Part shown: in pieces, positions 1 through 10,768 of the stretch
How the letters are laid out: each line of letters begins with the position of its first letter
Numbering within the stretch: the first letter of the stretch is position 1
Source of the DNA: a virus
Lineage: Duplodnaviria; Heunggongvirae; Uroviricota; Caudoviricetes
Length of the DNA stretch: 10,768 nucleotides
Reading direction: 5' to 3' (one strand)
Virus record (IMG/VR): IMGVR_UViG_2617270967_000015
Notes under the pieces: model-generated
Database searches by the model: none
What the model saw: the letters and a program-made list of their open reading frames with translations, nothing else
What the model was told of the DNA's origin: nothing
Position numbers and translations under genes: made by a program

Positions 1-1284
1 TTACAGACTTCTGGAAGGTTGCGCAGCTCTTACAACACGCGGTTGATCTTCCGCAGCGTCTTCCAGCGCACTTAAATCACGGTCTTTCACCTCTGGCATT
101 TTCAGCGCAGAGATTAAACCAATCACTGAATATGCCATGATCATAATGGCGATCGGATACCAGGATTCCGTCATGGTGCAGAAAATACCCGCCAGGATAG
201 GACCAAAACCGGAAGCGATAAGACCACCAATTTCTTTAGAAATAGCCATCCGGGTAAAGCGGTTTTTACAGCCGAACATTTCTGCCATGGTAATGTTTTC
301 CAGAGCAAATAATCCCAGCACCGCACAGTTATGAATCACAATCAGTGCAACCATAATGGTGCTCGGGGCATAGCTTTTATCTACAATGATAGAAAGCATT
401 GGCCATGCCAGCACAATCGCGGAGGTATTCATAATAATATACGGGATCCGGCGACCAATTTTATCGGATAACCAACCAAGGAACGGAATGGTCATAAAGC
501 CGAGAATCGAACTGATCATCAATGCATCTGTTGGAATTGCTTTGTTAAACAATAACGTCTGCACTAAATAGCCTGCAAGGAAAGTCTGAATTAACCCGGA
601 GTTACCCGCCTGACCAAAACGCAGCCCTGTTGCCAGCCAGAAGGATTTGCTCTGGAACATGCTACCAGCAGGTGCAGGTTTTGCTGTCGGTTGGTTACTG
701 TCGTTAACCTTCTCAAAGACCGGGCTTTCTTTCAGATTCATACGCAACCAGATAGCAAAGACCATCACGACAACACTCGCCAGGAACGGTATACGCCATC
801 CCCACGCCAGCAGTTCCTCTTTACTGAGAATGAAGAACATAAAGGCCCAGATTGCCGTTGCGCTCAAGGTTCCGCAGTTAGTTCCCATAGCCACAAATGA
901 GGAGATAATTCCGCGCTTACCTTTTGGCGCATATTCCGCCAGCATCGTACCGGCACCGGAAATTTCCGCACCTGCACCCAACCCCTGAATAATACGCAAC
1001 GTCACCAGCAAGATGGGTGCAAAAACACCAATCTGTGCATAGGTCGGTAACACACCAATTAAGGTGGTACAGATCCCCATCATGGTGATGGTAATAAAGA
1101 GCACTTTTTTACGCCCTATTCTGTCGCCCATTTTGCCGAAAATAAATGCTCCGACAATACGCGCCACATAACCTGCACCGTAGGTTCCCATTGCCAGAAT
1201 TAACGCCATTGCCGTTGATGATTCAGGAAAAAATATTTCATGAAACACTAACGCTGCGCCGAGCGAATATAACTGGAAATCCAT
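1..1284 (-). CDS. ydfJ: MFS-family transporter (metabolite:H+ symporter-like), YdfJ-like; N-terminus appears truncated
   Basis: 427-aa ORF with stop at 1-3 and ATG at 1284-1282. Many hydrophobic helices. MFS loop signature 'GKMGDRIGRKK' near residue 50 and a second copy 'SDKIGRR' near residue 275. The protein begins inside what aligns (from memory of ShiA/ProP-type relatives) to the first transmembrane helix, and there is no Shine-Dalgarno before the ATG. Confidence 0.85.
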   Translation of the reverse strand: MDFQLYSLGAALVFHEIFFPESSTAMALILAMGTYGAGYVARIVGAFIFGKMGDRIGRKKVLFITITMMGICTTLIGVLPTYAQIGVFAPILLVTLRIIQGLGAGAEISGAGTMLAEYAPKGKRGIISSFVAMGTNCGTLSATAIWAFMFFILSKEELLAWGWRIPFLASVVVMVFAIWLRMNLKESPVFEKVNDSNQPTAKPAPAGSMFQSKSFWLATGLRFGQAGNSGLIQTFLAGYLVQTLLFNKAIPTDALMISSILGFMTIPFLGWLSDKIGRRIPYIIMNTSAIVLAWPMLSIIVDKSYAPSTIMVALIVIHNCAVLGLFALENITMAEMFGCKNRFTRMAISKEIGGLIASGFGPILAGIFCTMTESWYPIAIMIMAYSVIGLISALKMPEVKDRDLSALEDAAEDQPRVVRAAQPSRSL

Positions 1285-1887
1285 AATTCACAGGTGTTTT
1301 TTCCCATCCTGTGGTTTCCTTGGCGTTTTCTAGGTTTTTTCAGATAGTTGCATTTTTTAAAAAGCATCCTAAGTTCGATCTCAGTGTCTATCTGGGGCCC
1401 ATTTCTGTCCCATATATGCCCCAAAAAAACTCCTCAACAGATAAGTAGTTTTTTCATGGAGTTACGCGTAAAATCAATAACGGCTGGAAATCATTCAATA
1501 CTCGCACTATCGAAAAATTTACCAGCCAACCGCAGCACGTTCTTGCATAAGGCGTGTCTGCGGTTTTTCAACTATTCAGATACATCACTCCCATCACATT
1601 CATTCCTCCACATCAAAGGCATATAGGCTATATCACCTTGATATTTTTCTTCTTCAGATAAAAACTGTTATCTATGTATACTTTTAAACCCAATCCGTGT
1701 AGAGTCTCTGCATAAGATAGTTTGCAGTTGCCACTTCAGCTTGCGCCATAAACCGCCTGATTTTTGCCGCCATCTGTTAGCATTCCTGTATACCTGAAAC
1801 GACAATGTTTATCTACGAACTTTAAGAACACCCAGGATAAAAATTGTCAACTATATCATATATAACACATTACTAATTCGAGGCTAT

Positions 1888-2001
1888 ATGAACAGCATAC
1901 TGATAATCACTTCGCTCCTTATCATATTCAGCATTTTTAGTCATGCTCTAATAAAATTAGGGATTGGCATATCCAATAACCCAGACAAAACCGATGTATA
2001 A
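1888..2001 (+). CDS. Hypothetical 37-aa small hydrophobic protein (single predicted TM helix)
   Basis: ATG at 1888 preceded by GAGG (1880-1883, 4-nt spacer); TAA at 1999-2001. Translation [37 protein letters not shown]. Below the ORF-track size cutoff. AT-rich context can produce such ORFs by chance. Confidence 0.25.
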
Positions 2002-2069
2002 GTCAACATATCCTGAATCAGACATACAATATCGCAATGAAAATCAATAATATTTTAAGGAATATATTC

Positions 2070-2303
2070 ATGAAATCAAAAGACACCCTAAAGTGGTTCC
2101 CTGCGCAGCTTCCTGAAGTCAGAATTATCCTAGGGGATGCTGTAGTGGAAGTAGCAAAACAGGGAAGACCTATCAATACCAGAACATTGCTTGATTACAT
2201 TGAAGGAAACATAAAGAAAAAATCATGGCTGGATAACAAAGAATTATTACAAACAGCGATATCAGTTCTTAAAGACAACCAAAATTTAAATGGTAAAATG
2301 TAA
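2070..2303 (+). CDS. ydfK: YdfK/YnaE-family small prophage protein (cold-shock associated, function unknown)
   Basis: ORF track 2037..2303 (88 aa). The internal ATG at 2070 has AAGGA about 9 nt upstream and gives 77 aa (MKSKDTLKWFPAQLPEV...), the length I recall for YdfK/YnaE. The start could instead be 2037. Confidence 0.7.
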   Translation: MKSKDTLKWFPAQLPEVRIILGDAVVEVAKQGRPINTRTLLDYIEGNIKKKSWLDNKELLQTAISVLKDNQNLNGKM

Positions 2304-2619
2304 TATAATAAACTTACTTTTTTATCATTTTTCCACTTTAACAACATTTTGCTCCACTTTTCCACGACCAAACAACTTGAAATCTGGTTAAAATAACACG
2401 CAACACTATTCTTCTTCCTTGAGTCCGCCCGGAACTCGAAAAACAAACCGAGTTAAAGCCATTTTTCACAAAATCGATTTTGGGTCTCACCAAAGTTACG
2501 GGGTTGCATACGCATTCGTTTATTTTCGAACGTGTACATACAAATATGCACAAAAATAATCAAAATTATTTTCTGAGATGCATTATGATATGAACACCAA
2601 TTTCGTATAGAGTCTCACT

Positions 2620-3210
2620 ATGTCTCGAATTTTTGCTTACTGTCGGATATCAACGCTGGATCAGACCACCGAAAATCAACGCCGGGAAATCGAAAGTGCA
2701 GGTTTTAAAATCAAACCTCAGCAAATAATCGAAGAACACATTAGCGGCTCAGCAGCAACCAGTGAGCGTCCTGGTTTTAACCGGTTGCTTGCTCGCCTGA
2801 AATGTGGTGATCAATTGATTGTGACAAAACTGGATCGCCTTGGTTGTAATGCAATGGATATCAGGAAAACAGTGGAACAACTGACCGAAACAGGTATCAG
2901 AGTGCATTGCTTAGCATTGGGGGGCATTGACCTGACCAGTCCAACAGGAAAAATGATGATGCACGTAATTTCAGCAGTCGCTGAATTTGAACGAGACCTT
3001 TTACTTGAACGCACTCATTCCGGGATAGTAAGAGCCCGCGGCGCAGGGAAACGTTTTGGTCGACCACCTGTGTTAAATGAAGAACAGAAACAGGTGGTAT
3101 TCGAACGAATTAAGTCAGGTGTAAGTATAAGTGCCATTGCCCGGGAATTCAAAACCTCGCGGCAAACCATTTTAAGAGCCAAAGCAAAACTTCAGACACC
3201 TGACATATAA
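2620..3210 (+). CDS. pinQ: Serine recombinase / DNA invertase of the Gin-Hin-Cin-Pin family
   Basis: 196-aa ORF. N-terminal catalytic region 'YCRISTLDQ' with the conserved serine, resolvase-type catalytic domain, and C-terminal helix-turn-helix '[18 protein letters not shown]'. Confidence 0.9.
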
Positions 3211-3307
3211 AAAATAATCTCGGTGTGAGATGCTTTACGTCTTCCAAGCCCCCTTCCTTGCCGTAAATGGAGAGATACATCTAATTATAGAATTTATATG
3301 TTTTACC

Positions 3308-3883
3308 CTACGGCAGTGCTGGCCATTCAATATCCGGTGCAGTTGATGTATCAACACGGTTCAGCAACACCCGATACTTTTTCCAGGCTTCCAGCAACAA
3401 GGTTTCTTCCTCCGTTGCGATCTCCAGATCCACAGCATCCTGAAGCGGCGCTATATGCTCACTGGCTATCTGCATCAGGCTGTTTTTTGTTTCTTCCGCC
3501 TCCCGGATCCGGAACAGTTTTTCTGCTTCCGTATCCTTCACCCAGGCTGTGCCGTTCCACTTCTGATATTCCCCTCCCGGCGATAACCAGGTAACATTTT
3601 CCGGTAACGGACCGAGTTCAGAAATAAATAACGCGTCCCCTGATGCCACGTCATAAACCGTTTTACCCCGATGATCTTCAACGAGATGCCACGATGCCTC
3701 ATCACTGTTGAAAACAGCCACGAAGCCTGCCGGAATATCTGGCGGTGCAATATCGGTACTGTTTGCTGGCAGACCTGTATGAGGCGGAATATATGCGTCA
3801 CCTTCACCAATAAATTCATTAGTTCCGGCCAGCAGATTATAAATTTTTATGGTCCGTGGTTGTTCACTCATTCTGAATGCCAT
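3308..3883 (-). CDS. tfaQ: Tail fibre assembly protein (lambda Tfa-like)
   Basis: 191-aa ORF. Its start overlaps the upstream stf stop as TAATG, typical stf-tfa coupling. The sequence is recognisable as lambdoid Tfa. Confidence 0.9.
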
Positions 3884-4191
3884 TACGCAAGCCTCACAAT
3901 ATAGTTAAATGCGATGTTTTTGACGGTGTTTTCCGCGTTACCAGCAGCGTTAACGGTGATGGTATGTCCATGTGAACCAATCGCAACGGAGTGCGTATGA
4001 GCACCAATACCGACAGTATGTGCGTGTGCACCTGCGCTTGCAGCAGTACCCGATACAGAGTGCGTATGAGCGCCTGCAGAAGAAGTGTTAACACTGTATT
4101 TAGAATAATCAGGTGATCCACTTCCCGGAGCACCACTGGAACCACCTGAAACAAATGTCATCAAATGGGTATGTGCACCGGCTGTCCCCAT
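3883..4191 (-). pseudogene. stfQ: Side tail fibre (Stf) C-terminal remnant
   Basis: 102 codons ending '...[29 protein letters not shown]' with repeated GAHTH / GAHAH His-x-His motifs typical of lambda Stf / T4 gp37-type fibre tips. No fibre N-terminus is present. The frame stays open upstream but is out of frame with the adjacent J-like fragment. Confidence 0.8.
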
Positions 4192-4487
4192 GCATTTACC
4201 GCCCGGACTGTCAGCCTGTAATTTCCCAGCGCCAGCTGCGTGAAGCGATATGTGGTTTCCGTCGTCCGGGCCGTGCTGACCAACCGCTCACTGCCGTCGT
4301 CCGCTGCCACGGTCAGGCGAAGCATAAAGCTCACCCCCTTCACCACCTTCGGCGTGTCCCAGCGCGCCAGCACCTGGTATTCCCCGCTGTCTGCGGTGAC
4401 TTCTGCGGTCAGGTGCTGAACTGCTGGCGGCGTGACACCATTCACCGTGCCGCTCTGGTCACCGTCAAAGTGCGCCCCGTTATCAGT
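4161..4487 (-). pseudogene. Internal fragment of lambda J-like tail tip / host specificity protein
   Basis: Frame open from the stop at 4488-4490 down to the stop at 4161. Translation '...[76 protein letters not shown]' matches my recollection of an internal segment of lambda J. It ends 6 codons after the junction with stf sequence. Confidence 0.7.
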
Positions 4488-4987
4488 TCATCCAGCGCGG
4501 CTGCTTTGTTCATGGCTTTGATGATATCCCGTTTCAGGAAATCAACATGTCGGTTTTCCAGTTCCGGAAAACGCCGCTGCACCGACAGGGGGATCCCGTC
4601 GAGAATACTGGCAATTTCACCTGCGATCCGCGACAGCACGAAAGTACAGAATGCGGTTTCCACCACTTCAGCGGAGTCTCTGGCATTTTTCAGCTCCTGT
4701 GCGTCGGCCTGCGCACGCGTAAGTCGATGGCGTTCGTACTCAATAGTCCCTGGCTGGAGATCTGTCTCGCTGGCCTGCCGCAGTTCTTCAACTTCCCGGC
4801 GCAGCTTTTCGTTCTCAATTTCAGCATCCCTTTCGGCATACCATTTTATGACGGCGGCAGAATCATAAAGCACCTCATTACCCTTGCCACCGCCTCGCAG
4901 AACGGGCATTCCCTGTTCCTGCCAGTTCTGAATGGTACGGATACTCGCACCGAAAATGTCAGCCAGCTGCTTTTTGTTGACTTCCAT
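4442..4987 (-). CDS. nohQ: Terminase small subunit, lambda Nu1 homologue; C-terminal ~12-15 residues replaced at a deletion junction
   Basis: 181-aa ORF 'MEVNKKQLADIFGASIRTIQNWQEQGMPVLRGGGKGNEV...' is essentially lambda Nu1 (winged-HTH N-terminus) up to '...NKAAALDELI', then diverges ('TGRTLTVTRAAR') where the DNA runs into J-like sequence. Confidence 0.9.
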   Translation of the reverse strand: MEVNKKQLADIFGASIRTIQNWQEQGMPVLRGGGKGNEVLYDSAAVIKWYAERDAEIENEKLRREVEELRQASETDLQPGTIEYERHRLTRAQADAQELKNARDSAEVVETAFCTFVLSRIAGEIASILDGIPLSVQRRFPELENRHVDFLKRDIIKAMNKAAALDELITGRTLTVTRAAR

Positions 4988-5230
4988 TGTTCATTCCACG
5001 GACAAAAACAGAGAAAGGAAACGACAAAGGCCAAAAAGCCCGCTTTCAGCACCTGTCGTTTCCTTTCTTTTCAGGGGGTATTTTAAATAAAAACATTAAG
5101 TTACGACGAAGAAGAACGGAAACACCTTAAACCGGAAAATTTTCATAAATAGCGAAAACCCGCGAGGTCGCCGCCCCGTAACCTGTCGGATCACCGGAAA
5201 GGACCCGTAAAGTGATAATGATTATCATCT
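4988..5230 (-). other. Lambda-type cos site (cosB - cosN - cosQ region)
   Basis: The minus strand reads '...GTTACG GGGCGGCGACCT CGCGGGTTTTCGCTATTTATGAAAATTTTCCGG...'. The 12-nt lambda cohesive-end sequence GGGCGGCGACCT is the reverse complement of 5165-5176. The 177 bp between cosN and the Nu1 start (4988-5164) corresponds to cosB. Confidence 0.8.
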
Positions 5231-5375
5231 ACATATCACAACGTGCGTGGAGGCCATCAAACCACGTCAAATAATCAATTATGACGCAGGTATCGTATTA
5301 ATTGATCTGCATCAACTTAACGTAAAAACAACTTCAGACAATACAAATCAGCGACACTGAATACGGGGCAACCTC

Positions 5376-5609
5376 ATGTCAACGAAGAACAGAACCCGCA
5401 GAACAACAACCCGCAACATCCGCTTTCCTAACCAAATGATTGAACAAATTAACATCGCTCTTGAGCAAAAAGGGGCCGGGAATTTCTCAGCCTGGGTCAT
5501 TGAAGCCTGCCGCCGGAGACTGTGCTCAGAAAAAAGAGTTTCTTCTGAAGCAAACAAAGAAAAGAGTGACATTACTGAATTGCTCAGAAAACAGGTCAGA
5601 CCAGATTGA
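5376..5609 (+). CDS. ynfO: Small basic protein with predicted ribbon-helix-helix DNA-binding fold
   Basis: 77-aa ORF. N-terminus rich in R/T/N, followed by 'RNIRFPNQMIEQINIALEQKGAGNFSAWVIEACRRRL', which has a beta-strand / helix / Gly-turn / helix pattern typical of RHH (CopG/Arc-like) proteins. Confidence 0.7.
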   Translation: MSTKNRTRRTTTRNIRFPNQMIEQINIALEQKGAGNFSAWVIEACRRRLCSEKRVSSEANKEKSDITELLRKQVRPD

Positions 5610-5666
5610 AGCAATTTAGATAATCGTGCAGACTACGCCCCCTCATATCACATGGAAGGTTTATCT

Positions 5667-6077
5667 ATGGATCAGGTAGTCATTTTTAAACAAATATTTG
5701 ATAAAGTTCGAAACGATTTAAACTATCAATGGTTTTATTCTGAGCTAAAACGTCACAATGTCTCACATTACATTTACTATTTAGCCACAGAGAATGTTCA
5801 TATTGTATTAAAAAATGATAATACAGTGTTATTAAAGGGCCTAAAAAACATTGTGTCTGTCAAATTTTCAAAGGATAGGCATCTTATAGAAACGACCTCT
5901 AATAAGCTGAAATCCAGAGAGATCACATTTCAGGAATACAGAAGAAACCTTGCTAAAGCAGGAGTTTTTCGGTGGGTTACAAATATCCACGAACAAAAAA
6001 GATATTACTATACCTTTGATAATTCATTACTATTTACTGAAAGCATCCAGAAAACTACACAGATCTTACCACGCTAA
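5667..6077 (+). CDS. ydfO: DUF1398-family prophage protein (YdfO/YbcV-like), function unknown
   Basis: ORF track 5652..6077. The ATG at 5667 has GGAAGG 7 nt upstream and gives 136 aa ([13 protein letters not shown]...). Confidence 0.75.
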
Positions 6078-6180
6078 ACCATAACGTCCGGCTTCTCTCA
6101 CTCCTGAGCCGGACTGCATTGGTTTAATAAAAACCATCAACAATTGTGATTTAGATATTCGGAACCATTCAAATATAACA

Positions 6181-6202
6181 AAACCCCGTAAAAACGAGGT
6201 TT
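6181..6202. terminator. Possible bidirectional intrinsic terminator between ydfO and gnsB
   Basis: Hairpin AAACCCCG-TAAAAA-CGAGGTTT (one mismatch), flanked by T-rich sequence on both strands. Confidence 0.4.
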
Positions 6203-6228
6203 ATGGATAAATTTTATTATTGAATACA

Positions 6229-6402
6229 TCAGATTAAATTAATCTTGACATCATAGCTTTCAAGACCCGTCATTTTTTCCCGTGCGGTAAACTGAATACT
6301 GGTAACTTCTTTCCCGGTCTTTTTCTTAAGTTCAATAATTTTTTTTGTTATATATTCAGAAATATCTGCTTCTGCTTTTGTTTTTAAGTTTTCAATATTC
6401 AT
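6229..6402 (-). CDS. gnsB: GnsA/GnsB-family small protein
   Basis: 57-codon ORF below the track cutoff: MNIENLKTKAEADISEYITKKIIELKKKTGKEVTSIQFTAREKMTGLESYDVKINLI. GAGG lies 5 nt upstream of the ATG at 6402. Contains the 'FTAREKMTGLESYDVKI' segment I recall from GnsA/GnsB. Confidence 0.7.
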   Translation of the reverse strand: MNIENLKTKAEADISEYITKKIIELKKKTGKEVTSIQFTAREKMTGLESYDVKINLI

Positions 6403-6573
6403 CATTTCCTCTTTTAGTCTGTTATGACTTTCCAGTTACACAGTAAGTCGATTATATGGTGCAAACGTGTAAAAGATAAGATGAAACATCGCAATAATCA
6501 ACATACGATAGTCTAAATTTTACACAAACAGACAAAGAGAATTTTCCTGAATTATCAATGCAATAGCATCAAA

Positions 6574-6729
6574 TCAACTCAAGAGCCTTATTGCTGCTTC
6601 CAGAATTTCTTCTGAAGTAACATGTCGATCCGCGGCTACATAAATGACTTTATGATCTCCGGTCAGAGATGGAAACCCTGCGGCCATTACAGTAAGGTGT
6701 GTTTTTTCGCCATTTGGATATTCACGCAT
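6574..6729 (-). CDS. ynfN: Small prophage protein YnfN-like
   Basis: The track ORF 6574..6765 uses a GTG start. The internal ATG at 6729 gives 51 aa (MREYPNGEKTHLTVMAAGFPSLTGDHKVIYVAADRHVTSEEILEAAIRLLS) with GGAG about 11 nt upstream. Start is uncertain. Confidence 0.55.
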   Translation of the reverse strand: MREYPNGEKTHLTVMAAGFPSLTGDHKVIYVAADRHVTSEEILEAAIRLLS

Positions 6730-6845
6730 GATGGTGTTAACTCCAGTCATCGCTGGCACTACCACTGCTGGTTCAGAGTTAAAAAAAACTATGTTTTTTT
6801 CATGATGTTACCGTAGTATGTGAGTATCCATCGAATAGACACCAA

Positions 6846-6867
6846 GCAAAAAAGCTCCCGAAGGAGC
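6846..6867 (-). terminator. Rho-independent terminator downstream of cspI
   Basis: On the minus strand: GGCTCC-TTCG-GGAGC hairpin (GC-rich stem, tetraloop) immediately followed by TTTTTTG. Confidence 0.55.
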
Positions 6868-7074
6868 CTTCATTTTCACTTTTTTAAATCCAACGACAGA
6901 CGGCTGGCATTTAAGTATTGTGAAATATTATCAAATGTAATCATCATTGATTTACAAAAGATACATTTTGCCCCGAAAGGATTCATGTCAGAAACATCAA
7001 AAGATGATGTTCTATACTGGGAACCATGACAACACGGGCATCTAAAGTGAATATGGTTTGTAATATTGTCTACC

Positions 7075-7287
7075 TCAAAGCGCCACTACATGAACAGCGG
7101 CAGGACCTTTAGGTCCGTTCTCAATACCAAATTCAACTTCCTGATTCTCAGTTAATGTTTTGAAATCGTTGCTCTGAATTGCTGAGAAATGGACAAACAC
7201 ATCTTTGCTGCCATCTTTCGGCGTGATGAAACCAAAACCTTTTTCAGGGTTAAACCATTTCACTAAACCAGTCATTTTGTTAGACAT
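7075..7287 (-). CDS. cspI: Cold-shock protein (CspA family, OB-fold)
   Basis: 70-aa ORF with RNP1 motif 'KGFGFI' and RNP2-like 'VFVHF'. AAGG lies about 8 nt upstream of the ATG. A ~360 bp non-coding region lies upstream (7288-7649), consistent with the long 5' leaders of cspA-family genes. Confidence 0.9.
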
Positions 7288-7649
7288 AATTATTACCTTT
7301 TGAAGAAATTAGCCCTTGGGCAGAATGGTCCGAAAAAAAATATCAGAGAGAAAAACCAACAAGGAAATCTCAAGAGGTACAAATAATAAAATTATAACAA
7401 TGACTGCTTCAGATAAATTTGTAACAAACCAGAACACCATTAACGCATGATTAACCACCCATAGCAAGGATTACTTTTGTAAAGAAAAACACAGCAATGA
7501 AAGAATAGCTTTATTTATTAATAAAACGTGTCATTCTGATTAAGACCTTTTATCTTACCCTTAAGATTTCAGGAATTTTGGCTCATGGAAGAGTCCTTTT
7601 TATTTAAATTTTACATTCCGCGATGTAAATGTTCCGATTTAATATTACC

Positions 7650-8673
<1,024 letters not shown>

Positions 8674-8677
<4 letters not shown>

Positions 8678-8756
8678 AGATATTTATGATGAGGACGCTC
8701 GTGCTTATTGGCAGGATTTTCAATCTTAAAGGAGTACTGATGCTGCAGATAAGACT
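8674..8756 (-). pseudogene. 3' remnant (~26 codons) of the gene upstream of the endolysin, truncated by the IS insertion (possibly ydfR-like)
   Basis: A frame is open from the IS boundary to a TGA that overlaps the rrrQ ATG (ATGA coupling). Identity as ydfR is inferred only from K-12 gene order recalled from memory. Confidence 0.3.
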
Positions 8757-8810
8757 TGAACCGCCCCGGGGATCCTGGAGACTAAACTTCCTGAGAAAGA
8801 GGTAAACAGG

Positions 8811-9137
8811 ATGACTAAAAATACTCGTTTTTCCCCCGAAGTCCGTCAACGGGCAGTCCGTATGGTTCTGGAAAGTCAGGGCGAATATGACTCACAGTGG
8901 GCGGCAATTTGTTCCATTGCCCCAAAGATTGGCTGTACGCCGGAGACTCTGCGTGTCTGGGTACGACAGCATGAGCGGGATACCGGAGGCGGTGATGGAG
9001 GGCTCACCACCGCTGAACGTCAGCGTCTGAAAGAGCTGGAGCGTGAAAATCGTGAACTGCGCCGCAGTAACGATATCCTTCGCCAGGCTTCCGCTTATTT
9101 TGCGAAGGCGGAGTTCGACCGCCTCTGGAAAAAATGA
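8811..9137 (+). CDS. IS3-family transposase OrfA (HTH / leucine-zipper component)
   Basis: 108 aa '[57 protein letters not shown]...'. GAGG 8 nt upstream. A6 run at 9129-9134 overlaps the stop. Confidence 0.9.
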
Positions 9138-9551
9138 TGCCACTGCTGGATAAGCTGCGTGAGCAGTACGGGGTCGGACCGGTATGCAGCGAACTGCATA
9201 TTGCCCCGTCAACGTATTACCACTGTCAGCAACAGCGACATCATCCGGATAAACGCAGTGCCCGTGCGCAGCGCGATGACTGGCTGAAGAAAGAGATACA
9301 GCGCGTATACGATGAAAATCACAAGGTATACGGTGTGCGTAAAGTCTGGCGTCAGTTGTTACGGGAAGGTATCAGAGTGGCCAGATGCACTGTGGCACGT
9401 CTCATGGCGGTTATGGGACTTGCCGGTGTTCTCCGGGGTAAAAAGGTCCGTACGACCATCAGCCGGAAAGCCGTTGCCGCAGGCGACCGCGTAAACCGTC
9501 AGTTCGTGGCAGAACGACCAGACCAGCTGTGGGTGGCTGATTTTACTTACG
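9134..9551 (+). pseudogene. IS3-family transposase OrfB, N-terminal ~139 codons, interrupted by a group II intron
   Basis: -1 frame relative to orfA. Sequence up to '...RPDQLWVADFTY' is followed by intron sequence. The track ORF 9134..9616 is read-through into the intron. The DDE catalytic core would lie in the downstream exon outside the window. Confidence 0.8.
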
Positions 9552-10768
9552 GTGTGCCCGGAGTTCAGGGCGGGCATGGATGCTTAAATGAACCGCGAGT
9601 CTGTCTGGAATATTGAACCGGTAACTCACGATGAGAAACCCAACAATCCCACCGGGTGTGACGGTGGAGAACCTGAGCGGCAGTGACCTGCGGCATGCCC
9701 GCAGGGTGATGTAACCCGCTGACAACGGGGATTGAGGCGAGATCACTAAGCCGAGATGATCCTCAAGGTTAAGTACTGAAAGGCTGAAGAACATGAACCC
9801 GTTAATCCGCCTCTGTGGGTTGAAAACGTCACCACGGCCTACGTGATCTGACAGGCCGTGCAGGAGGAACTGGCAGTGATACGTAAGCACTGCCGGTCGA
9901 AGGTGTTTTGACATGTATGCGAAACACCGGGGCAGCAGCGTCTATCACGCTTGCGTTGCTGACTTCTGCCAACTTGCGGCAAGCAAGGATAAAGAGTGCG
10001 ACGGGCAGCCTCCTCAGTATGCCTGAGTCCAGGCAGGTAAACCGGGGAAGGTCAGCGACGGATGTTAAGGGGGCATGGCTCCGATGACGCGCTGGCTGGC
10101 GGAGCTTCCGTAGTAGTCCGCGATGGGGAAAGCCCATTACATGGCGAAGGGAAGCAGTTTGAATGTGTTTGCGACGTGAATTAACTGACCTAACGAGGTG
10201 AAGACCTTTGATAATCAGCGAAATGCAACGCAAGCTTGCCACATGGGCAGCCACCGATCCGTCCCTACGGATTCAACGGCTGCTGCGTCTGATAACACAA
10301 CCAGAATGGCTGGCTGAAGCGGCGCGGATCACGCTTTCATCAAAGGGGGCCCATACCCCCGGCGTTGATGGCGTGAACAAAACAATGCTACAGGCCAGAC
10401 TGGCTGTTGAGCTGCAAATCCTCAGGGATGAATTACTCTCAGGCCACTACCAGCCCTTGCCCGCCAGACGGGTTTACATCCCTAAAAGCAACGGCAAACT
10501 GCGACCACTGGGTATCCCCGCGTTGCGGGATCGTATTGTTCAGCGGGCCATGCTGATGGCGATGGAGCCGATATGGGAGAGTGATTTTCATACGCTCTCA
10601 TATGGCTTCCGGCCTGAGCGCAGTGTCCACCACGCGATCCGCACGGTGAAATTACAGCTCACAGACTGCGGTGAAACCCGGGGACGCTGGGTGATTGAAG
10701 GCGACCTGTCCAGTTACTTCGACACCGTACATCATCGACTGCTGATGAAGGCTGTACGCCGCAGGATC
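9552..10768 (+). mobile_element. Group II intron (partial: 5' end, domains I-III and start of the domain IV ORF); 3' end beyond the window
   Basis: Begins GTGTG (GUGYG consensus) exactly where IS629-like orfB homology stops. Domain-IVa-like motif 'GGGAAAGCCCATTACATGGCGAAGGGAAGCAG' upstream of the RT ORF resembles the maturase-binding site of Ll.LtrB-type introns (from memory). Confidence 0.8.
10208..10768 (+). CDS. Group II intron-encoded reverse transcriptase/maturase, N-terminal part (partial)
   Basis: Frame open from 10202 to the window end. Translation contains RT domain 0/1/2 motifs ('LRIQRLLRL...GAHTPGVDG', 'YIPKSNGKLRPLGIPALRDRIVQRAM', 'SYGFRPERSVHHAI', 'GDLSSYFDTVHH'). Start is either TTG 10208 (GAGGTG 7 nt upstream) or ATG 10223. 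Confidence 0.85.
   Translation, partial: MIISEMQRKLATWAATDPSLRIQRLLRLITQPEWLAEAARITLSSKGAHTPGVDGVNKTMLQARLAVELQILRDELLSGHYQPLPARRVYIPKSNGKLRPLGIPALRDRIVQRAMLMAMEPIWESDFHTLSYGFRPERSVHHAIRTVKLQLTDCGETRGRWVIEGDLSSYFDTVHHRLLMKAVRRRI

Follow-up and report, generated by a model that had tools for sequence, protein, structure and literature searches.

The stretch of 10,768 nucleotides analysed here (the window) ends in the catalogued group II intron E.c.I4. The intron occupies its cognate site for homing within the orfB gene of IS629, and this IS629 itself lies inside ydfR of the Qin cryptic prophage; we put the probability of this reading at roughly 0.93. A sequence-only reading had proposed the same three-layer nesting (group II intron in IS629 orfB in prophage), and our analyses bore it out with all of its coordinates (Table 1). 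Its further claim that the composite is the most unusual structure of the window fails, since the site is a catalogued E.c.I4 homing site (PMC3522654) and we found the IS629::intron junction in 1,415 of 5,426 complete E. coli genomes (26%). Neither E.c.I4 nor its insertion at this exact point of IS3-family elements is new, both having been catalogued before. The 3' part of domain IV, domains V and VI and the 3' exon lie beyond the window and were examined only in copies that are 99.8–100% identical over the intron.

IS629 within the Qin prophage

Positions 1–8756 were ~100% identical to Qin of several annotated E. coli chromosomes and matched them in gene content and order (ydfJ'-ydfK-pinQ-tfaQ-...-nohA-ynfO-ydfO-gnsB-ynfN-cspI-rzpQ-rrrQ-ydfR). 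In the uninterrupted prophage of strain ML35 (L004), ydfR overlaps the start of rrrQ by 4 nt and runs on for 312 nt; in the window, homology ends at the IS629 end. The left end of IS629 lies at 8757 (TGAACCGCCCCGGGG...), and its right end and the target-site duplication fall outside the window.

We then compared this insertion with other genomes. An IS629 at the same ydfR position, with or without the intron, was absent from the 5,426 complete E. coli genomes, and an exact-match search of species-representative genomes with the Qin/IS629 junction gave 0 matches. Megablast across the junction against complete E. coli genomes returned split matches only, together with an IS3 element elsewhere in ydfR. 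Many contigs with an identical 160-aa OrfB' were retrieved by protein look-up, none of them with the element in Qin.

The 5' part of IS629 in the window shares 98.6–99.1% identity with copies annotated in RefSeq as 'IS3-like element IS629 family transposase', and its isoform differs by 0.9% or more from all copies in the 5,426 complete E. coli genomes. The element carries orfA, the frameshift pseudoknot and the start of orfB; the uninterrupted copy bears the RefSeq label 'programmed frameshift'. The rve catalytic domain spans OrfB residues 127–223 and the intron follows residue 139, so that only 13 rve residues are encoded upstream; full copies carry the rve domain in their 3' exon. When the intron was excised in silico from a full copy, a 1,310-bp IS629 with an intact 296-aa OrfB resulted. 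RefSeq, for its part, calls both IS629 halves 'incomplete/frameshifted' pseudogenes beside an ltrA gene.

Table 1 Features of the window, with positions, strand and supporting evidence.
Feature	Position	Strand	Evidence and remarks
Qin cryptic prophage segment (ydfJ' ... rzpQ, rrrQ), outermost mobile layer	1..8756	.	~100% identity to E. coli ML35, H3 and other strains
ydfR 3' remnant (Qin lysis-cassette gene)	8674..8756	-	Severed by IS629
IS629 5' part (= 5' exon): left end, orfA, frameshift region, orfB codons 1–139	8757..9551	+	
IS629 orfA, 108 aa	8811..9137	+	Pfam HTH_Tnp_1, E = 1.3e-12
ALIL programmed -1 frameshift pseudoknot of IS3-family elements	9092..9208	+	Rfam RF01497, 121.5 bits vs gathering score 50, full length
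Truncated orfB' frame, 160 aa (139 aa of OrfB + 21 intron-encoded codons, then stop at 9614–9616)	9134..9616	+	Pfam HTH_21 only
Group II intron E.c.I4, first 1,217 of 2,270 nt (putative domains I–III and 5' part of domain IV)	9552..10768	+	Cut by the window end
Candidate EBS2 (GAGAUCA)	9739..9745	+	In the 11-nt terminal loop of hairpin 9727–9764
EBS1 hairpin	9870..9896	+	Loop 9879–9887 (9 nt) holds EBS1 CGUAAG (9882–9887)
RT/maturase (ltrA), N-terminal 182–187 aa	10208..10768	+	Start TTG 10208 or RefSeq-annotated ATG 10223; runs off the window end

Boundaries, exon pairing and encoded protein of the intron

The window is colinear with an uninterrupted IS1203/IS629 copy (L002) up to 9551. In the alignment, the uninterrupted copy reads ...GATTTTACTTACG followed directly by TCAGCACATGG, whereas the window reads ...GATTTTACTTACG followed by GTGTGCCCGG; because the window departs from the uninterrupted element right there, the intron starts exactly at 9552. 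The start immediately after ...WVADFTY and the sense orientation had both been proposed from the sequence alone, and both hold: the boundary cannot slide, and the intron lies on the orfB strand. The intron opens with GUGUG (9552–9556) immediately after the exon, in keeping with the GUGYG rule.

Full E.c.I4 copies are 2,270 nt long, contain domain V/VI and end in AC. In the full copy of E. coli IAI39 (L001), domain V/VI was detected at 6979–7065 (RF00029, 64.9 bits vs gathering score 40), ending ...CUCUAC. Likewise, 8 other contigs with an identical 160-aa OrfB' showed the 2,270-nt intron and then the rve-encoding 3' exon wherever the contig was long enough. The sequence-only reading had staked its case on a domain V and on an IS629 orfB that carries on downstream as 3' exon; domain V/VI and such an exon are present in the near-identical full copies. 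If it is full, the window copy is expected to run on for 1,053 further intron bases ending ...GCCUCUUACUCUAC, followed by TCAGCACATGG... of the IS629 3' exon.

An Rfam search of the window itself, at gathering and at permissive thresholds, gave no group II match; the sole fitting model (domain V/VI) lies past the window end, and none of the Rfam domain I–IV models matches this intron class. The minimum-free-energy fold of 9552–10222, computed from the single sequence, had a z-score of -1.15, not distinguishable from shuffles, and served for local hairpins only. Two minus-strand open reading frames within the ribozyme (9543–9914 and 9829–10254) were taken as spurious.

Pairing between the intron and its 5' exon was then evaluated. 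EBS1 forms 6/6 Watson-Crick pairs with IBS1 (CUUACG, 9546–9551, the last six bases of the exon), has a probability of 0.93 of being unpaired, and sits on a hairpin stem in which two pairs are changed on both sides (compensatory) in a divergent copy (L009). A 6-mer match is expected by chance at ~0.15 in 671 nt, and it is the loop context and position that make EBS1 convincing. Candidate EBS2 pairs at 7/7 positions (5 Watson-Crick and 2 G.U) with exon positions -14 to -8 (UGAUUUU), and its partners are target positions invariant across IS3-family sites. The EBS2 assignment is tentative, as three other intron 7-mers also pair with this U-rich exon stretch; an alternative, UGAAAAC (9821–9827), forms 6/7 pairs. 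An EBS3/IBS3 pair was not located. Of the pairings on which the sequence-only reading had made its case depend, EBS1/IBS1 is perfect, and EBS2/IBS2 has a plausible candidate. Of the IS3-family sites compared, that of IS629 alone pairs fully with both EBS1 and EBS2. Intron copies residing in IS911-like and other IS3 elements carry the same EBS1 as those in IS629, giving no EBS1 covariation with the target, and these targets pair with EBS1 only partially, at codon-constrained bases.

The reading frame of the RT/maturase opens after TGA 10199–10201 and has TTG 10208 as its first start, in agreement with the opening at about 10208 suggested beforehand. The 182-aa fragment encoded in the window matched TIGR04416 (group II intron RT/maturase) with E = 2.9e-50, and the full 502-aa protein of the IAI39 copy reached 341 bits, above the cut-off of 300. 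Within these 502 aa, Pfam recognised RVT_1 (E = 1.4e-34) as well as GIIM (E = 1.3e-10), and an endonuclease (HNH, D/En) domain was not found after the X domain. A retron or defence RT was ruled out, those models scoring far under their cut-offs. E.c.I4 is likewise listed as a class A intron whose protein is without a D/En region (PMC3552965).

Identity with E.c.I4 and distribution among IS elements

We compared the window intron with the IAI39 copy and observed 1 mismatch in 1,217 nt, which is synonymous. E.c.I4 was reportedly catalogued by Dai & Zimmerly in 2002 and by Leclercq & Cordaux in 2012, and is ~99% identical to S.f.I1 of Shigella flexneri. The IAI39 copy, whose boundaries we derived independently (L001 4796–7065, 2,270 nt), corresponds to NC_011750:3581215–3583484, listed as E.c.I4-23 (PMC3522654 supplement). 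According to the same survey (PMC3522654), IAI39 holds 15 E.c.I4 copies, and the intron is directed to specific positions within IS3-like transposases, namely those of IS629, IS911, ISEc16 and ISEc31; the host IS types of the copies found here agree with the published ones. The catalogued intron and the window copy share the IS629 orfB insertion point, the orientation and the protein type (class A, RT and maturase, no endonuclease domain). Catalogued copies are likewise reported within prophages (CP4-6, P4-like and an IAI39 prophage), and the window copy differs from them only in its genomic address, ydfR of Qin.

The IS629::E.c.I4 composite was found in many unrelated contexts, including a T6SS cluster, a PTS operon, a Tn3 remnant and a sat/iutA island. 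Between copies, intron divergence was 0–0.16%, as against 1.3–2.3% for the host IS. The same contrast is seen in the window, where 10/795 exon positions and 1/1,217 intron positions are mismatched (Fisher p = 0.0006). This uniformity of the intron across diverse IS copies is consistent with IS629 isoforms that were already present having recently acquired the intron.

Proposed arrival of the intron and its effect on the transposase

Established group II intron biology suggests retrohoming as the route by which the intron came in. On this route, intron RNA released by splicing, in complex with its protein, would reverse-splice into the sense strand of the DNA behind ...CUUACG under the guidance of EBS1 and EBS2, and would then be copied into DNA; reverse splicing into the sense strand would automatically place the intron in sense orientation. 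Since the protein is without an endonuclease domain, priming would probably proceed via the nascent strand at the replication fork, as in RmInt1. Once in place, the unspliced message would yield only OrfA and a truncated OrfAB without nearly the whole DDE (rve) core, so that the transposase of this IS copy would come from spliced mRNA only. Dependence of transposase expression on splicing, as the sequence-only reading had suggested, is possible in principle. We found no splicing or mobility data for E.c.I4 in the accessible literature.

Two studied introns bear on this point. Ll.LtrB interrupts ltrB, the relaxase gene of conjugative elements of Lactococcus, and resembles E.c.I4 in IS629 in that the mobility of its host element requires the interrupted gene, so that transfer of the element depends on splicing. 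It differs in being of class ML/IIA, in having an endonuclease domain, and in that its host gene is a conjugative relaxase; its splicing is efficient and required for conjugation. RmInt1 of Sinorhizobium meliloti is closer to E.c.I4: it too is without an endonuclease domain, and has its natural homing site inside an IS transposase gene, that of ISRm2011-2, in sense orientation. For RmInt1, the idea that splicing governs IS activity was tested experimentally, with splicing measured and retrohoming demonstrated. The two are nevertheless unlike in class (D vs A) and in host IS.

Whether splicing acts as a switch or is too rare to matter is a question on which the odds are close to even: it may be, with a probability only slightly below one half, that the intron is a near-complete knock-out of this IS629 copy, exon ligation being too inefficient for meaningful amounts of transposase. 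The copy would then persist passively, or move only with transposase supplied in trans from an intron-free IS629. RmInt1, the closest studied parallel, was spliced at 0.07 ± 0.02% in vivo, and its authors argued that the intron limits the spread of its host IS (PMC3035460, PMC4238363). The removal of all but 13 rve residues points the same way, and ribosomes translating orfAB would read 21 intron codons of domain I and stop at 9614–9616, which could disturb ribozyme folding. Against this, the RmInt1 figures belong to another intron and not to E.c.I4 itself, RmInt1 is of class D and its low fidelity was traced to its own sequence features (PMC4238363), and the IS629 exons are precisely restorable in silico.

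The order of events in ydfR can also be read differently, namely that the 3.58-kb IS629::E.c.I4 composite transposed whole, rather than IS629 arriving first and the intron homing into it. We consider this unlikely, at about one chance in four in our judgement. No intron-less intermediate at this ydfR position was seen among complete E. coli genomes, and the many unrelated contexts of the composite would agree with its transposition as a unit; however, retrohoming into IS copies already resident would account for those contexts just as well, the uniform intron in divergent IS isoforms and the literature favour retrohoming, and the IS right end and target-site duplication that bear on this lie beyond the window. 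A more specific proposal, which we regard as a long shot, is that Qin::IS629::E.c.I4 is strain-specific and recent, and that the unit transposed into ydfR by means of transposase made from its own spliced mRNA. The private IS629 isoform, the essentially invariant intron and the absence of this insertion from 5,426 complete E. coli genomes are the observations behind it. If true, the insertion would be natural evidence of productive E.c.I4 splicing, and an intron-bearing IS629 would stay mobile, the opposite of the RmInt1 picture in which the intron restrains its IS.

That the window copy is a dead remnant, namely only the 5' portion of an intron that was cut short or rearranged further down, as with the 1,764-bp E.c.I4 fragment that K-12 carries in its CP4-6 prophage, is very improbable: the window does stop at intron base 1,217 of 2,270, such repeats often break short contigs, and K-12 and Shigella are known to contain E.c.I4 fragments (PMC3522654), but the copy has a single synonymous difference from a full, active-looking copy over 1,217 nt, its RT frame is open to the window end, and 8/8 other contigs with an identical OrfB' hold the full intron where long enough.

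Taken as E.c.I4 at its homing site in IS629, the structure has little significance beyond correct annotation. Reading both IS629 halves as exons of one intron-interrupted IS prevents miscounted IS copies and pseudogenes, and the composite, as a 3.6-kb repeat, explains broken assemblies. More broadly, introns that target IS elements are relevant to how one selfish element may restrain, or hitch-hike on, another; for RmInt1 this question has already been posed and in part tested, and for E.c.I4 it has been surveyed.

Nested layers of the window

Judged from its sequence, the window is composed of three nested mobile layers, with the Qin cryptic prophage outermost. In uninterrupted strains, e.g. 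E. coli ML35, minus-strand ydfR and a holin gene come after rrrQ; in the window, an IS3-family element opens with TGAACCGCCCCGGGG at the point where ydfR is cut (see table). The flanking 8.7 kb of Qin (bases 1-8756) was ~100% identical to the prophage in several E. coli chromosomes, yet no IS629 was found at this ydfR position among complete E. coli genomes (ydfR::IS629 junction in 0/5,426). An independent, intron-less IS3-family insertion was observed in the Qin gene ydfR/DUF1327 of E. coli O39:NM F8704-2 (5075-6699 of L003), placed elsewhere in the gene, with 231 nt between it and the ydfR 3' end; IS elements may target ydfR repeatedly, or the gene may just be dispensable.

The IS part of the window showed 98.6-99.1% identity to RefSeq copies of "IS3-like element IS629 family transposase". 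Its isoform (8757-9551) has a best match of 99.1%, i.e. it differs by at least 0.9% from all copies in the 5,426 complete E. coli genomes. The intron interrupts OrfB after residue 139, 13 residues inside the rve (DDE) domain (residues 127-223).

Features of the prophage and IS629 layers
Feature	Position	Strand	Remarks
Qin gene content	1-8756		ydfJ', ydfK, pinQ, tfaQ, tail-fibre remnants, nohA, ynfO, ydfO, gnsB, ynfN, cspI, rzpQ, rrrQ
IS009 (RF02111)	3342-3540	-	full-length Rfam match, 221.5 bits (gathering score 117); inside Qin tfaQ tail-fibre assembly gene
cspA-type thermoregulator 5' UTR (RF01766)	7048-7433	-	112.8 bits; spans cspI leader and start
cspI	7075-7287	-	Qin gene, ORF list
ydfR remnant	8674-8756	-	cut after 83 nt
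orfA of IS629	8811-9137	+	HTH_Tnp_1
ALIL -1 frameshift pseudoknot	9092-9208	+	121.5 bits
orfB of IS629	from 9134	+	HTH_21

Intron boundaries, identity and exon pairing

We aligned the junction with the uninterrupted IS1203/IS629 of O157:H7 (L002), which reads ...GCTGATTTTACTTACG/TCAGCACATGGCAGGG; at the same point, the window and the full intron copy of E. coli IAI39 (L001) both read ...GCTGATTTTACTTACG/GTGTGCCCGGAG..., and the interruption in L001 closes ...GCCTCTTACTCTAC/TCAGCACATGGCGGGG. The segment inserted in L001 is exactly 2,270 nt long, lies on the orfB strand, starts with GUGUG and ends with AC; its boundary is unambiguous, since differing bases on the two sides leave no room for it to slide. 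The sequence-only reading, which had placed a sense-oriented intron at 9552 directly after the exon residues '...WVADFTY', was thus exact in start and residues and right in orientation. It had also looked to domain V and a continuing IS629 3' exon: the window's own copy ends at intron base 1,217, and both parts are present in L001, as they are, wherever long enough, in contigs with an identical 160-aa OrfB' (the truncated orfB product). In silico removal of the intron yielded an IS of 1,310 bp whose OrfB (296 aa) is intact.

We assign the inserted segment to the group II introns, specifically E.c.I4. In L001, domain V/VI lies directly 3' of the ORF (RF00029; 64.9 bits, gathering score 40), and the 502-aa intron protein scored 341 bits (cut-off 300) with the NCBI equivalog model for group II intron RT/maturase; Pfam found RVT_1 and GIIM in this protein and no endonuclease domain, and E.c.I4 is a class A intron listed among those whose proteins have no D/En region (PMC3552965). 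The supplement of Leclercq & Cordaux 2012 lists "E.c.I4-23, NC_011750, 3581215-3583484, +" (PMC3522654), coordinates that convert exactly to L001 4796-7065, our alignment-derived boundaries. The window intron differs from E.c.I4-23 by one synonymous change in 1,217 nt, and encodes the protein's first 182 aa if counting begins at the annotated start, ATG 10223. The proposed RT/maturase start at about 10208 was fair in that the frame opens there with TTG, but differs from the annotation. The TTG stands 9 nt after GAGG and gives a 507-aa protein, as called on contig L020 (11075-12598); the RefSeq ATG stands 24 nt from the same GAGG and gives 502 aa. The start codon is ambiguous between the two.

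Pairing with the 5' exon, also anticipated, was perfect for EBS1-IBS1 and tentative for EBS2-IBS2. EBS1 (CGUAAG, 9882-9887) is the full complement of the last six exon bases, CUUACG; a strong hairpin (9870-9896) presents it in a 9-nt loop, with P(unpaired) 0.93. This hairpin is supported by a 90%-identical relative (L009), in which two stem pairs carry compensatory changes (G-C to A-U, U-A to C-G) and the loop differs in sequence. The best EBS2 candidate, GAGAUCA (9739-9745), in an 11-nt terminal loop, forms 7/7 pairs (2 G.U) with exon positions -14 to -8; UGAAAAC (9821-9827) is an alternative, and the assignment is tentative because this exon stretch, rich in U, can pair with several 7-mers of the intron.

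Distribution and target range

Counted as a single stretch covering 80% or more of 8757-10768, the IS629::intron junction occurs in 1,415 of the 5,426 complete E. coli genomes, where it is carried by chromosomes as well as plasmids; RefSeq annotation already covers its parts. The nested composite described by the sequence-only reading is therefore real and was correctly interpreted, but it is ordinary rather than unusual: published work already describes the intron, its homing site in IS3-family elements and its presence in prophages, and only the genomic address (the ydfR position) and the IS629 isoform are private to the window. In the E. coli ECMA0423 and ECDA1023 chromosomes (L005, L008), intron and IS differ from all other copies by numerous small indels (25 gap openings over 2 kb), which look like assembly or basecalling error, not biology.

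Between copies, the IS exon diverges by 1.3-2.3%, whereas the intron diverges by 0-0.16%; window and L001 differ at 10/795 exon and 1/1,217 intron positions (Fisher p = 0.0006). This pattern fits a single intron lineage that spread recently into older isoforms of IS629, a conclusion also reached in the literature. Arrival would be by retrohoming, as in group II introns generally: the intron RNA-protein complex would reverse-splice into the sense strand of the DNA and the inserted RNA would then be reverse-transcribed, so that the sense orientation would arise with no need for selection. As an endonuclease domain is missing from the intron protein, the primer is presumably a nascent strand at a replication fork, as established for RmInt1.

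With the 5'-terminal 32 nt of the intron as query, a scan of species-representative genomes revealed copies of 98.8% identity or more in Pantoea, Kluyvera, Enterobacter, Tenebrionibacter, E. albertii and Shigella. All of these occupy the homologous codon in different IS3-family transposase genes, just past the conserved W-x-x-D-x-T-Y motif. Copies at foreign sites retain the IS629-type EBS1, and pairing there is limited to codon-constrained bases (C-6, U-4, A-3, Y-2; G-13, A-12, U-9); pairing is full at IS629 only, which is therefore the cognate site.

L009, a tiny contig (Microbacterium tenebrionis contig14, 3,202 bp) of an actinobacterial assembly, carries its 90%-identical E.c.I4 relative in an IS3-type gene (at ~137 of the reverse strand); this copy could be contamination or horizontal transfer. 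The standard intron occurs in assemblies of Tenebrionibacter intestinalis, a name that hints at a similar source. The EBS1 loop of L009 (AAUGUAUAGCC) has UAUAG, complementing the IS911-type exon end CUAUA and not its own 5' exon (ACGUAUC). The 'Candidatus Halomonas stercoripullorum' MAG contig (L014, 4,846 bp) has a non-IS629 5' exon (...GGCGATATCACTTATG) and an IS629-like 3' exon (TCAGCACATGGCAGGGGG...), so its host IS is chimeric, similar to the 'chimeric IS629/IS911' and 'IS629/ISEc31' hosts noted previously (PMC3522654); this suggests that intron copies residing in different ISs have recombined. For this enterobacterial repeat, the MAG's taxonomic label is doubtful.

Consequence for the transposase

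Unspliced mRNA is predicted to be able to yield only OrfA and an OrfAB' without the catalytic core, so transposase from the window's IS629 copy would require splicing. Whether the intron would act as a "splice-dependent switch" or as an "effective knock-out" of this IS629 is a close call; we give the knock-out nearly even odds, because RmInt1 in ISRm2011-2 of Sinorhizobium meliloti splices in vivo with an efficiency of 0.07 ± 0.02%, and the authors of that work argue for an intron that holds its host IS in check (PMC3035460, PMC4238363).
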